DNA from: Escherichia coli
Lineage (GTDB): Bacteria > Pseudomonadota > Gammaproteobacteria > Enterobacterales > Enterobacteriaceae
Length of the DNA: 64,000 bases
Direction: 5' to 3' (one strand)
NCBI RefSeq assembly: GCF_024502345.1
Contig: NZ_JALDNN010000001.1
The position numbers were made by a program, and so were the translations under genes. The notes beneath the pieces are model-generated. The model was not told the origin of the DNA. It saw only the letters and a program-made list of their open reading frames with translations, and made no database searches. Shown piece after piece: positions 9,927 to 17,962 of the stretch; the first letter of the stretch is position 1, and every line of letters starts with the position of its first letter.

Positions 9927-12809
9927 ATGGCCAGAAAACAATGCCAGGTCTGCGGCCAACCCGCCACCGTGCGGGTGGAAGCCAATCTCAACGGTCGTCA
10001 CAGCACCATGCTGTTGTGCGACGACCATTACCGGCAATTAGTGCGCCAGCAAAAGCGCACCGTTTCGCCGCTGGAAGCCTTGTTCGGTTCGCGCAGCGGC
10101 CTGTTCGAGGACTTCCTCGGCAGTGACTTCTTCCGCATCGGCGACGACGCGACGCCAGTTGCCGCCGATACCGATGACGTGGTCGATGCCTCGTTTGGCG
10201 AGCCCGCCGCCGCAGGTTCGGGTGCGCCGCGCCGTCGCGGCAGTGGGCTGGCCAGCCGCATCAGCGAACAGTCGGAAGCCTTGTTGCAGGAGGCCGCCAA
10301 ACACGCTGCCGAATTTGGCCGCTCCGAGGTGGATACCGAACATCTGCTGCTGGCGCTGGCCGACAGCGACGTGGTCAAGACCATCCTGGGTCAGTTCAAG
10401 ATCAAGGTCGATGACCTCAAGCGGCAGATCGAGTCTGAGGCCAAGCGCGGGGACAAGCCCTTCGAGGGCGAGATCGGCGTGTCGCCGCGCGTGAAGGATG
10501 CGCTCAGCCGCGCCTTCGTGGCCTCCAATGAACTCGGTCATTCTTATGTCGGTCCAGAGCATTTCCTGATTGGTCTGGCCGAGGAAGGCGAAGGGCTGGC
10601 CGCCAACCTGCTGCGCCGCTACGGCCTGACGCCGCAGGCGCTGCGCCAACAGGTCAGCAAGGTGGTCGGCAAGGGCGCCGAGGATGGACGCGCTGAGACG
10701 CCGACCAACACGCCCGAGCTGGATAAATACTCGCGCGACCTCACCAAGATGGCGCGCGACGGCAAGCTCGACCCGGTGATCGGCCGCGCGCAGGAGATCG
10801 AAACCACCATCGAGGTGCTGGCCCGGCGCAAGAAGAACAACCCGGTGCTGATCGGCGAGCCGGGTGTGGGCAAGACCGCCATCGTCGAAGGGCTGGCGCA
10901 GCGCATGGTGGCGGGTGAAGTGCCCGAGACCTTGCGCGACAAGCGCCTGGTGGAACTCAACATCAACGCCATGGTGGCCGGCGCCAAATATCGCGGCGAG
11001 TTCGAGGAGCGCGTGCAGAAGGTGCTGAAGGAGGTGACCGAGCACCAGGGCGAGCTGATTTTGTTCATCGACGAGGTGCACACCATCGTCGGTGCCGGCC
11101 AGGGCGGTGGCGAAGGCGGGCTGGACGTGGCCAACGTATTCAAACCGATGATGGCGCGCGGTGAACTCAACCTGATCGGCGCCACGACGCTGAACGAGTA
11201 CCAGAAATACATCGAGAAGGATGCCGCACTGGAGCGGCGCTTCCAGCCGGTGACGGTGCCCGAGCCGACGGTGGCCCAGACCATCATGATTCTGCGCGGC
11301 CTGCGCGACACCTTCGAGGCGCACCACAAGGTCAGCATCTCCGAGGACGCGATCATCGCGGCGGCCGAGTTGTCCGACCGCTACATCACGGCGCGCTTCC
11401 TGCCGGACAAGGCGATCGACCTGCTCGACCAGGCGGCCGCGCGCGTGAAGCTGTCGGCCACGGCCCGGCCGGTGGCCGTGCAGGAGCTGGAGTCCGAACT
11501 GCACCAGCTGCGGCGTGAACAGGATTACGTGGCCGCGCGCAAGCAGTACGACCAGGCCGCCGAGCTCGGCAAGCGCATCGAAGCCAAGGAGACCGAGCTC
11601 AAGAAGCTCGTCGAGAACTGGGAGCGGGAGCGGGCCTCCGGCAGTGCAGAGGTCAAGGCGGAACACGTGGCGCAGATCGTCTCGCGCCTGACCGGCATCC
11701 CTGTCAACGAGTTGACGGTGGAAGAGCGCGAAAAGCTGCTGCACTTGGAACAACGGCTGCACGAGCGCCTGGTGGGACAAGACGAGGCGGTCCGTGCCGT
11801 GGCCGATGCCGTGCGGCTGTCCCGCGCCGGCCTGCGCGAAGGCAGCAAACCGGTGGCTACCTTCCTGTTTCTGGGCCCGACCGGGGTGGGCAAGACCGAG
11901 CTCGCCAAGGCATTGGCCGAATCGATCTACGGCGATGAGCACGCCCTGTTGCGCATCGACATGTCGGAATATGGCGAACGCCATACCGTGGCGCGGCTGG
12001 TGGGCGCGCCTCCGGGCTATGTCGGTTACGACGAAGGCGGTCAGCTCACCGAGAAGGTGCGGCGCAAGCCCTACAGCGTGCTGCTGCTCGACGAGATCGA
12101 GAAGGCACACCCTGACGTCTACAACATCCTGCTGCAAGTGTTCGACGACGGTCGCCTCACCGACGGCAAGGGCCGGGTGGTGGATTTCACCAACACCATC
12201 ATCATCGCCACGTCCAACCTGGGTTCGGACATCATCCAGCGACGGCTGAAGGCGCGTGGGGCGGCCGACGAGGAGTACGAAAAGACCAAGGCCGAGGTCA
12301 TGGACGTGCTGCGCGGCCACTTCCGGCCCGAGTTCCTCAACCGCATCGACGAGATCATCGTCTTCCATGCGCTGGGTAAGGAGGAGATCCGCCACATCGT
12401 CGGCCTGCAGCTCGATCGCGTGGCGCGCAGCGCCGCCAGCCAGGGCGTGACGCTCACTTTCGATCAGACGCTGATCGACCATTTCGCGGAAGAAGGCTAC
12501 AAACCCGAGTTCGGTGCGCGTGAACTCAAGCGCCTGATCCGCAGCGAGCTGGAAACTGCGCTGGCGCGCGAGATGCTCGGTGGCGGCATCGGCAAGGGCG
12601 ATCACGCCAGCGCACGCTGGGACGACAAGGCCGAACGCGTGGTGTTCGAACGCAAAGAGCCACTGCAGACCCCGGCCGAGCCGGAGCAGCCGGATGCCGC
12701 GAAGGCGACCGAGCCGGAGCAGCCGGATGCCGCGAAGGCGACCGAGACGCCGCACGGCGACGCTGGCAAAGGCTCGCGCAAGAAGAAGTCGGCGAGCGAC
12801 GCATCTTGA
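9927..12809 (+). CDS. clpK: ClpK/ClpG-type AAA+ disaggregase (Clp ATPase with N-terminal zinc-ribbon-like CxxC..CxxH)
   Basis: [36 protein letters not shown]-terminus; two AAA+ modules (GEPGVGKT..., [15 protein letters not shown]...); AAGGAG RBS before ATG 9927. ORF-track start at 9867 is a less likely upstream start. Confidence 0.92.
12678..12743 (+). repeat. Perfect 2 x 33-bp tandem duplication inside the clpK 3' region (encodes [11 protein letters not shown] twice)
   Basis: GAGCCGGAGCAGCCGGATGCCGCGAAGGCGACC occurs twice in direct succession, in frame. Confidence 0.9.
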
Positions 12810-13000
12810 TGGCGGGCGAGGCTGCCGTGTCCGACCCCAAGGGCCTGGCATGGGCAGCCTCCCTGGCCTCGATCGCGGTGGCGTTCGTGGCCGCGGGTCA
12901 CGCGGTCGTCTACAAGCGTGATCCGCGGTCGACCACGCCGTGGGGGCTGCTCATCAGCGGCGGCACTGCCCTCCCGCTCGCTGGCCATCCGTTTGCGTGA
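12809..13000 (+). CDS. Small hypothetical hydrophobic protein between clpK and the ftsH-like gene (speculative)
   Basis: 63-codon ORF starting at ATG overlapping the clpK stop; hydrophobic; may be a GC-rich frame artifact. Confidence 0.3.
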   Translation: MAGEAAVSDPKGLAWAASLASIAVAFVAAGHAVVYKRDPRSTTPWGLLISGGTALPLAGHPFA

Positions 13001-13060
13001 CGGTGCGGCCCGTCTGTTCACCTGATCCTCTGGCAACTCGACTTTCGAGGAACACAGCCC

Positions 13061-14788
13061 ATGGAAAAAAAGAATCAATGGAATACCGGCTACTGGATCG
13101 TTGCCCTCCTGCTGTTGTTGAGTTTGCAGAGCTACTGGCAGACGGCGAAAACCGTCGAGCCGGTGCCCTACAGCGAGTTCGAGAAGGCGCTGGCCGAGGG
13201 GCGCGTGGCCGAAGTGCTGGTGTCGGATCGTACGGTGACCGGGCGCCTGAAGTCGCCGGACAGCCGGGGCAAGACGACGATCGTGGCAACGAGGGTCGAA
13301 CCCGATCTTGCCGATCGCCTGTCGAAGTACGACGTGCCCTATGCCCGCGTGTTGGAGAGCACCTGGCTGCGCGATGTGCTGTCGTGGATCCTGCCAGCGG
13401 TAGCCTTCTTTGGCGTCTGGTTCTTCCTGTTCCGCCGCTTCGCCGAGAAGCAGGGCATGGGCGGGTTTCTCAACATCGGTAAGAGCCGCGCCAAGGTGTT
13501 CGTGGAAAAGAACACCGGTGTGACGTTCGCCGATGTCGCGGGGGGGGATGAGGCCAAGGCGGAGCTGGTCGAGATCGTCGATTTCCTGAAGAATCCGCAG
13601 GACTATGGCCGTCTCGGGGCGCGCATTCCCAAGGGCGTGTTGCTGGTCGGCCCACCGGGCACCGGCAAGACATTGCTGGCCAAGGCTGTTGTCGGCGAGG
13701 CGGCGGTGCCCTTCTTCTCCATCTCCGGATCAGAGTTTGTCGAGATGTTCGTCGGCGTGGGTGCGGGCCGCACGCGCGGCGTCGGCGGCCACGACGAGAG
13801 CGAGCAGACCCTCAACCAACTGCTCACGGAGATGGACGGCTTCGACAGCTCGGTCGGGCTGATCATCCTCGCCGCCACCAACCGCCCCGAAATCCTCGAC
13901 CAGGCTCTGCTGCGTGCCGGCCGCTTCGACCGCCAGGTGCTGGTGGACCGGCCCGACAAGAAGGGGCGGCTGGACATCCTGAAGGTTCATGTCAAGAAGG
14001 TGACGCTGGCCCAGGATGTAGACCTCGAACAGGTAGCAGCACTGACCACGGGCTTTTCCGGCGCGGACCTCGCCAATAGGGTCAACAAGGCGGCGCTGGC
14101 GGCGAGGAGACGCCGTGCGTCCGCCGTGGAATTGCAGGACTTCACCGCGACCATCGAGCGCATCGTGGCGGGCCTGGAAAAGAAGAGCCGCGTGCTCAAT
14201 CCCAAGGAGCGGGAAACCGTGGCCCATCACGAGATGGGCCATGCGCTGGTGGCGCTGGCGCTGCCCGAAACCGACCCCGTACACAAGATCTCGATCATCC
14301 CGCGCGGCATCGGCGCGCTGGGCTACACCTTGCAGCGCCCCACCGAAGACCGCTTCCTGATGACGCGTACCGATCTCGAGCACAAGATCGCCGTACTGCT
14401 GGGCGGGCGTGCCGCCGAAAAGCTGGTGTTCGGCGAGTTGTCTACCGGGGCGGCGGACGATCTGGCGCGAGCCACCGACATCGCCCGCGACATGATCACC
14501 CGCTTTGGCATGGACGAGGGCCTGGGCTACATCGCCTTCGAGGCGCAGCGGCCCCGCTTTCTCGATACACCGGAACTGGCCCACGGCGGTTGCCGGGTGG
14601 CCGAATCGACCCAGGCGCGCATCGATCAGGCTATCCGCGACATCGTGATGGGCGTGTTCGAGCGCGCCTACCGGATTCTCGACATCTACCGCGCGGTGCT
14701 GGAGCGCTGCGCGCGCGAGCTGCTGGCGCGGGAAGCGCTCGACGAAAGCGATATCCGTCAATTGACTCAAGGACTTGTTCGGAACTGA
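13061..14788 (+). CDS. FtsH-like membrane AAA+ zinc metalloprotease paralog; Walker A and HEMGH present, Walker B segment apparently missing
   Basis: Two N-terminal TM segments, GPPGTGKT Walker A, HEMGH zinc site; [28 protein letters not shown] lacks the ~27-29 residues (including IIFIDEID) present in E. coli FtsH at that position. Confidence 0.85.
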
Positions 14789-17350: not shown

Positions 17351-17962
17351 ATGAACACAGACACCATCACCGATTCCAGTGCGGATGACCCCACCAAAGC
17401 ACTGTGTTCGCTTAGCCAAAATTGGTGGCTTTTTGTGCTGCGCGGTGTCTTGGCATTGATTTTTGCAGCCCTCGCGTTCTGGATGCCACAATCGGCTCTG
17501 TTGGCCATGACCATCATGTTCGGCGCATTTTCCTTGGTCAATGGCGCGTTCAACTTGTTTGCAGCGGTGCGCCATATCCAGAAAAAAGAGCGCTGGGGCT
17601 GGTTGTTGTTCAGCGGCATTGTCGGCATACTTACGGGCGTCGTCGTCCTGGTTGCTCCTTGGGTCGCCACGATAGTCTTGGCTTCTTTTTTATGGGCTAG
17701 CGTGGGCTTCTGGGCGATTTTCACCGGTGTGCTGGAGATATCTGCCGCCGTTCGGCTGCGTCGGGAAATCAAGGGTGAAATCTGGCTTGCCCTCAGTGGA
17801 CTGCTCTCGATTATCCTTGGTGCTATCGTCTTGTGGATATTTTTTACCCGTCCGGTCGAGTCATTCGTGGCCGCAGGCTGGCTGTTGGGTTTCCATGCGG
17901 CAGTCTATGGCGTCACGCTTTTGTTCTTGAGTTGGAGTCTTCGCAAAACGCGCCTGGGGTAA
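17351..17962 (+). CDS. hdeD: HdeD-like acid-resistance membrane protein
   Basis: 203 aa with multiple TM segments, HdeD-family-like. Confidence 0.8.
   Translation: MNTDTITDSSADDPTKALCSLSQNWWLFVLRGVLALIFAALAFWMPQSALLAMTIMFGAFSLVNGAFNLFAAVRHIQKKERWGWLLFSGIVGILTGVVVLVAPWVATIVLASFLWASVGFWAIFTGVLEISAAVRLRREIKGEIWLALSGLLSIILGAIVLWIFFTRPVESFVAAGWLLGFHAAVYGVTLLFLSWSLRKTRLG

Follow-up and report, generated by a model that had tools for sequence, protein, structure and literature searches.

Does the FtsH-like protease encoded in a locus of heat resistance (LHR) of Escherichia coli still work as an ATP-dependent protease? The question was raised by a 64,000-nucleotide stretch of contig NZ_JALDNN010000001.1 (assembly GCF_024502345.1), referred to here as the window, in which the ftsH_GI gene (positions 13061–14788) forms an open reading frame (ORF) of 575 amino acids. 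All genes and motifs of the island given by position are on the plus strand. The island was assigned to the type known as LHR1 or transmissible locus of stress tolerance 1 (tLST1), since its gene order and coordinates agree with those annotated for E. coli Z226-5 and ECONIH4, and its ftsH has a nucleotide identity of 99.8% to its best matches. The Walker B segment of the ATPase module was found to be deleted in frame. The gene is probably a degenerate, ATPase-dead allele that arose by repeat-mediated slippage, hitchhikes in its operon and is still collecting damage.

The FtsH of LHR2/tLST2 on the E. coli plasmid pECO-cbb3 (609 amino acids, 90.8% nucleotide identity to the window gene) served as the intact reference. 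In the DNA alignment to this allele, reference nucleotides 720–809 (90 nt) were missing from the window gene, corresponding at the protein level to the loss of LHR2 residues 240–265 and 268–271 (PIGG). An initial annotation of this DNA, made from the sequence alone, had proposed an in-frame loss of the Walker B segment with Walker A, both transmembrane (TM) helices and HEMGH intact, and each of these points was confirmed. Its estimate of 27–29 lost residues was slightly low, as 30 are missing relative to the island homologue and about 29 relative to E. coli K-12 FtsH (alignment to 7vhp). The same annotation had named a Walker B motif merely shifted in position as the outcome that would speak against it. 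This was ruled out, since a search of the whole 575-residue protein for hhhhD[DE] and hhhD[DE] gave no match, meaning that the motif was deleted and not displaced.

The deletion scar was placed at 13763–13792 (residues 235–244) from DNA alignments and repeat offsets. The 90-nt loss is composed of two deletions, one of 78 nt between copies of CGCG(T/C)GCGCG(A/G)C, with its junction at about 13765/13766, and one of 12 nt between exact copies of TCGGCGGCC, with its junction within that repeat at 13782–13790. Short GC-rich direct repeats occur in this region at spacings of exactly +78, +12 and +105 nt. Slippage or illegitimate recombination would have joined the repeat copies lying 78 nt apart, and a second event those lying 12 nt apart; between them, the two deletions would account for the absence of half of alpha2, of the core strand beta3 that bears Walker B, and of a portion of the pore-2 loop.

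The profile searches located the gap in the same place. The Pfam AAA match (PF00004) was split in two, with model positions 49–73 absent, and the NCBIfam model TIGR01241 matched in two stretches with 664.5 bits, compared with 779.2 bits for the intact protein (115 lower; cut-off 600). The elements that are gone are the C-terminal half of helix alpha2, strand beta3 with Walker B (AIIFIDE) and four residues of the pore-2 loop. AlphaFold2 models of the intact and the deleted protein, for which an identical set of 67 diverse FtsH homologues was aligned, show the missing elements, and are no proof of misfolding. The intact protein was modeled with a helix at residues 233–247 and a strand at 251–256, the mean predicted local distance difference test (pLDDT) scores being 84, 95 and 96 for blocks 231–240, 241–250 and 251–260. 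For the window protein, pLDDT fell below 50 at residues 233–243 and 246–248, no beta3 strand was formed, and the AAA core contained only four strands (192–196, 218–220, 269–273 and 289–294). According to these models, the lesion takes away an internal strand of the AAA+ sheet and not just the catalytic Asp and Glu.

The other landmarks of the family were retained. These are TM helix 1 (13088–13138; residues 10–26, hydrophobic, AlphaFold2 helix 9–29), TM helix 2 (13376–13432; residues 106–124, AlphaFold2 helix 102–130), Walker A with the sequence GPPGTGKT (13649–13672; residues 197–204), pore loop 1 with the sequence MFVG (13745–13756; residues 229–232), the sensor-1 Asn and the second region of homology (SRH) with its arginine fingers (13871–13933; residues 271–291), and the zinc-binding HEMGH (14228–14242; residues 390–394). 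Within ATNRP...RAGRFDR (residues 271–291), N274, R275, R285, R288 and R291 fall in invariant alignment columns, and D467 of the GAxxD motif is also invariant. Pfam detected FtsH_ext (residues 11–94), the split AAA domain, AAA_lid_3 and a full-length Peptidase_M41 (model positions 1–191 of 191; residues 377–568). With two TM helices flanking FtsH_ext, a TIGR01241 score above the cut-off, Walker A, pore loop and SRH, and HEXXH with the M41 domain, the protein belongs to the FtsH family by homology, but it lacks one defining catalytic feature, the Walker B hhhhDE on beta3, and on its sequence it should not be counted as a functional FtsH.

Without the Walker B Asp and Glu and the internal strand of the beta5-beta1-beta4-beta3-beta2 sheet, the protein would, from what is established for AAA+ biochemistry, be unable to hydrolyze ATP, and the deleted module could probably not fold or hexamerize normally. 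ATP-dependent proteolysis and hexamer formation are predicted to be absent, since Walker B and beta3 are both lost. Because proteolysis of folded substrates by FtsH needs ATP-driven translocation, the window protein should be inactive as an FtsH. The earlier proposal that ATP could not be hydrolyzed normally is supported by the loss of Walker B, and in the model comparison the loss extends to half of alpha2 and all of beta3.

Sister islands carry many other lesions in the same gene. Indels accumulate in many alleles between pore loop 1 and helix alpha3, a hotspot with RDL present two or three times, PIGG deleted, VRDLFEQAR changed to VCELAR, IDELD reduced to ID, and FID duplicated. In a second lineage (E. 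coli G3/10, Z142-1 and 14EC017) the 90-nt loss occurred with another crossover register (GVGAARVRGIGG / GVGAARVRGIGGHDEREQ), and was accompanied by an additional 9-nt deletion immediately after HEMGH. A deletion of 105 nt between repeats at that exact spacing arose independently in Raoultella terrigena NCTC9997. Klebsiella pIncHI1B plasmids kept Walker B and show the change of VRDLFEQAR to VCELAR. An out-of-frame deletion of 991 nt reduced the gene to an 827-nt remnant in AW1.7 and in most of the Klebsiella and Enterobacter plasmids sampled, and the ftsH of E. asburiae pAR0468 has an 11-nt deletion plus losses at the 3' end.

Frame breaks were found on top of the Walker B deletion. In a sample spread over the hits, 11 of 38 Walker-B-deleted E. 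coli copies (about 29%) had a length that was not a multiple of three, and every such copy that was fetched carried the 'frameshifted' flag of the PGAP annotation. A run of eight G (13540–13547) in the VAGGDE codons, present in every tLST1-type allele, is an apparent frameshift hotspot: it has nine G in E. coli C, seven in SL124 and ten in 14EC017, and the LHR2 allele reads GGCGTCG at this site. The flag was attached to these three copies, and to that of Z142-1, which has a 1-nt deletion elsewhere in the gene.

Selection was assessed against clpK (9927–12809), the operon neighbor upstream of ftsH, which encodes the ClpK/ClpG disaggregase and was used as a control gene under purifying selection. 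The ratio of nonsynonymous to synonymous substitution rates (dN/dS) for ftsH was 0.07–0.09 between tLST1 and LHR2 alleles, indicating that the gene was formerly under strong constraint, and rose to 0.25–1.0 within tLST1, the values for clpK being 0.04–0.28. Between the window and ECONIH4, ftsH differed by no synonymous and three nonsynonymous changes, and clpK by nine and one. Across nine islands, 24 synonymous and 41 nonsynonymous polymorphisms were counted in ftsH versus 36 and 23 in clpK (p = 0.011) and 128 and 122 in the other genes pooled (p = 0.05). When only the seven Walker-B-deleted E. coli islands were compared, the p values were 0.005 against clpK and 0.13 against the pooled genes. 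Overall, the nonsynonymous to synonymous ratio (N/S) was 1.4–1.7 for ftsH and 0.29–0.64 for clpK (Fisher p = 0.005–0.011).

The distribution of variants pointed the same way. In 120 distinct 575-residue proteins, 112 different amino acid substitutions were found, and in the cytoplasmic part the rate per site was flat across the FtsH conservation classes (0.225, 0.148, 0.23 and 0.198; chi2 p = 0.58). Key residues were hit as well: Walker A by G197S, the sensor-1 region by N274D and R275H, and HEMGH by G393S. In the window allele itself A211V is fixed at a family-invariant position, and L340R and R247S are further changes at conserved positions.

Two sets of alleles were considered as functional controls for this analysis and rejected. 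The LHR2 variants were unusable, being collapsed into one 90% cluster (P0121, 1671 members). The tLST1 alleles of 'intact' length (602–608 amino acids) were invalid as a control, as their pattern was just as flat and invariant sites were frequently substituted. These Walker-B-keeping alleles, from Klebsiella, Yersinia, Enterobacter and Citrobacter (P0122–P0240), commonly carry D158Y, P190T, A207T, F218C and R305S, all at residues at least 95% conserved across FtsH, and they also have in-frame indels in alpha2 (RDL duplications, VCELAR). From these sequences, the whole enterobacterial tLST1 ftsH clade may be non-functional or relaxed.

The many different lesions in sister islands, the secondary frame breaks, the lack of avoidance of invariant residues and the relaxed N/S relative to clpK argue for decay, which was among the possibilities raised in the initial annotation and is the one favored here. 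The gene would be in the middle of pseudogenization, with its ORF still open since the main lesion happens to be in frame. Its persistence would be explained by its place within the clpK...degP operon; being unneeded for the selected functions, it would be carried along as the island spreads through E. coli.

Several observations weigh against decay. Of the 38 Walker-B-deleted E. coli copies sampled, 27 still have the ORF open; the window-type gene is not called a pseudogene by PGAP, and its TIGR01241 score is above the cut-off. The N/S of 1.4–1.7 is below the value of about 2.9 expected at full neutrality, leaving room for some constraint, and the N/S signal could alternatively stem from inherited older polymorphism. 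The genes orf11, HTH and hsp20 also had a high N/S at shallow divergence and the pooled test was borderline (p = 0.05 and 0.13), so that clpK and kefB provide most of the contrast for ftsH. For the flat distribution of variants, the tLST1 alleles of 'intact' length gave no good functional control, having the same pattern, and some of the rare variants could be sequencing errors. Finally, the G8 tract may be a real slippage hotspot, or the differences in its length could be in part homopolymer errors of long-read assemblies.

Published data on heat resistance bear on whether the gene is needed. According to a review of these islands (Kamal et al. 2021, PMC8290217), the FtsH_GI gene is truncated in tLST1, and tLST1 and tLST2 strains are comparably heat resistant. 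The cloned 14.5-kb LHR of AW1.7 was shown to suffice for extreme heat resistance (Mercer 2015, PMC4563881), and the complete AW1.7 assembly contains ftsH only as the 827-nt remnant. Together, these findings suggest that ftsH is dispensable for this phenotype, and the description of even the intact PaFtsH2 as 'silent' in vivo (PMC10850787) points the same way. The 'truncated' ftsH of AW1.7 is the same gene in the same island type, likewise not intact and not needed for heat resistance. It differs in having lost 991 nt out of frame, whereas the window allele, the common chromosomal form in E. coli, has lost 90 nt in frame and is annotated as a normal protein. In the complete assembly, the LHR of AW1.7 is located on a 66.9-kb plasmid, pAW1.7_2 (NZ_CP072541.1); the 2015 paper reported no plasmids larger than 14 kb in its E. 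coli strains, implying a chromosomal LHR. The ftsH gene is absent from the main texts of Boll 2017 and Mercer 2015, the word 'truncated' being found only in the 2021 review, and a literature search combining Walker B with LHR or tLST ftsH retrieved no description of an in-frame Walker B deletion.

The closest relatives of the window allele are two near-identical orthologues, FtsH_GI/PaFtsH2, encoded by the tLSTa/TLPQC-1 island of P. aeruginosa clone C, and the LHR2/tLST2 FtsH carried by E. coli plasmids, the amino acid identity to the LHR2 allele being 94%. All occupy the same place in the operon (clpK-[cls]-ftsH-hsp20GI-yfdX) and have in common the TM/periplasmic domain, Walker A, the pore loop, the SRH and HEXXH. 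Unlike the window allele, the orthologues also have an intact Walker B, the C-terminal half of alpha2, beta3 and the four pore-2 residues. With Walker A and B, PaFtsH2 forms hexamers with ATPase and protease activity in vitro, although it is described as a 'silent' enzyme in vivo, and it hydrolyzes ATP about 9-fold faster than FtsH1 (PMC10850787). The core E. coli FtsH (HflB) is of the same family and domain order, and aligns end to end with the window protein (7vhp) with about half of the residues identical; it is essential and has the Walker B sequence IIFIDEID, which the window protein lacks. The FtsHi pseudo-proteases of plants are natural FtsH homologues in which one of the two catalytic activities has likewise been lost (PMC8197885). 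They represent the opposite case, having lost the zinc protease site and being proposed as part of an ATP-hydrolyzing chloroplast import motor; the window protein has kept the protease motif and lost the ATPase core, and shows no sign of later conservation.

Decay need not have been neutral. Inactivation of FtsH_GI could have been positively selected in Enterobacteriaceae, for example if a fast and mostly futile ATPase were costly or if it interfered with the essential FtsH of the host; the product would be non-functional in that case as in neutral decay. At least five different lesions either cluster within the ATPase core or take it out, the neighboring cls is also deleted, the fast ATPase of PaFtsH2 goes together with silence in vivo, and of the 142 E. 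coli records containing ftsH_GI sequence only 34 keep Walker B, nearly all of them with the LHR2 allele. Against this, the same species stably maintains an intact, almost invariant LHR2 allele, often within the same cells, so that intact FtsH_GI is not evidently toxic. The clustering of lesions is sufficiently accounted for by the closely packed direct repeats of the region and by the G8 tract, and the high frequency of the 575-residue allele reflects the spread of one island lineage, not repeated events. Selection for the loss is therefore considered unlikely.

A function retained without ATP hydrolysis would be a different matter. The protein could be a membrane-inserted, ATP-independent M41 peptidase or holdase, or could modulate or poison the host FtsH or a co-resident LHR2 FtsH_GI. 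ATPase-defective mutants of E. coli FtsH can be dominant negative. The lesion is in frame, the TM helices, Walker A, pore loop, arginine fingers and complete M41 domain are intact, a Shine-Dalgarno sequence (GAGGAA) precedes the ATG, and the allele is very widespread. Several genomes (e.g. ECONIH4, 0H26 and 2273-PO3) contain both the 575-residue allele and an intact LHR2 ftsH, and FtsH1 and FtsH2 of P. aeruginosa form hetero-oligomers (PMC6629908). On the other side, the loss of a core beta-strand would make folding and hexamer assembly doubtful, frame-breaking lengths lie on top of the deletion in about 29% of the sampled copies, and variants at Walker A, sensor-1 and HEMGH are as frequent as at variable sites. 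About 1 kb of the gene is gone in AW1.7 and in most of the sampled Klebsiella and Enterobacter plasmids, and the cloned AW1.7 LHR keeps its phenotype. Such a function is very unlikely, and nothing in the current analysis supported the protease-only or hetero-oligomer-modulating subunit suggested in the initial annotation. There is only a slim chance that selection keeps the in-frame state, making the product a natural FtsH of the inner membrane that is ATPase-dead, has an intact protease motif and co-assembles with the host FtsH or a co-resident intact FtsH_GI. If this were true, a selected ATPase-dead FtsH would tune the FtsH-dependent turnover of RpoH, LpxC and membrane proteins in heat-resistant E. 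coli, as the mirror image of plant FtsHi, and a selected modulator would be a natural dominant-negative subunit of an AAA+ protease.

The 1728-nt gene was present in 99 E. coli complete-genome records at 99% identity or more, the best matches each consisting of one alignment without gaps at 99.8%. A protein identical to that of the window is present in public databases (P0001), and at least 1000 contigs carry the commonest 575-residue variant (P0011). A mis-called ORF, or an artefact of sequencing or assembly, which a GC- and repeat-rich region prone to assembly or polishing errors might suggest, was rejected as having a negligible probability, given these records from many laboratories and the distinct, internally consistent junction types in different lineages. 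An 81-nt probe of the exact junction found no record covering the junction among the PLSDB plasmids, and in these collections the allele is chromosomal in E. coli.

Alleles of 579 amino acids were also seen in E. coli and Shigella sonnei (P0182, P0220, P0227 and P0229), which have an LHR2-type backbone on both sides of the same 30-residue Walker B deletion. The junction is an unmutated GRARG...HDEREQ in P0182, and the window-type GRTRG...HDESEQ in the other three. These sequences suggest that LHR1 and LHR2 copies residing in one cell underwent gene conversion, or that the deletion occurred more than once.

The island is inserted in the E. coli chromosome beside the mhp operon and is flanked by insertion sequence (IS) elements, with the gene order HTH-hsp20-clpK-(cls remnant)-ftsH-hsp20GI-yfdX1-yfdX2-hdeD-orf11-trx-kefB-psiE-htpX-degP. 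The cls remnant is a 192-nt ORF annotated as 'hypothetical' (12809–13000) between clpK and ftsH. When window positions 12781–13070 were compared with LHR2 by blastn, the 5' part matched the end of clpK and the start of cls (77%), and the 3' part the end of cls and the start of ftsH (83%). The cardiolipin synthase gene cls is intact in LHR2, and the ORF in the window consists of its 5' and 3' ends fused, with about 1.2 kb lost internally. Read from these alignments, the remnant shows the same reductive history of this island segment as ftsH, and suggests that tLST1 was derived from an ancestor containing cls.

Other parts of the island and its surroundings also varied. The 3' end of clpK (12676–12746) contains a perfect 33-nt tandem repeat in 2.2 copies, near the C-terminus of ClpK. 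The gene is 2850 nt long in Klebsiella, PCP06021 and 14EC017, 2883 nt in the window and ECONIH4, and 2949 nt in FAM21845; judged from these lengths, the steps are multiples of 33 nt, consistent with variation in repeat copy number. At the start of hdeD-GI (17351–17390) changes are clustered in six codons, the rest of the gene being nearly identical; the N-terminus of HdeD-GI reads MNTDTITDSSAD in the window, MNTDTNANSNAD in ECONIH4 and MNTDTIANSNAD in Klebsiella. Downstream of the LHR in E. coli Z226-5 (window about 24000–49000, the window being only partly compared), IS fragments and a CP4-57-like island were found, with genes for a GTPase, DUF932, WYL, antirestriction and RadC proteins and for YkfI/YafW and CbtA/YeeU toxin-antitoxin pairs, an Ag43-family autotransporter, and then arsC/arsB, which are ordinary contents of mobile elements.

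That the ftsH of tLST1 is degenerate is already known in general terms; what is new is the precise make-up of the Walker B deletion in the common chromosomal form of the gene, the hotspot for indels and the set of different lesions. The RefSeq protein WP_000412528.1 and its variants are named FtsH/Yme1/Tma-family metallopeptidase with the defect unflagged, and counting 'two FtsH proteases' in LHR1-positive E. coli is misleading. The practical consequences are modest. The segment from the pore loop to alpha3 and the G8 tract are prone to slippage, and their alleles could mark lineages of tLST islands. The results support the view that heat, chlorine and pressure resistance conferred by tLST1 is independent of FtsH_GI and cls, and suggest that tLST1 arose by reduction from an ancestor resembling tLSTa/tLST2.

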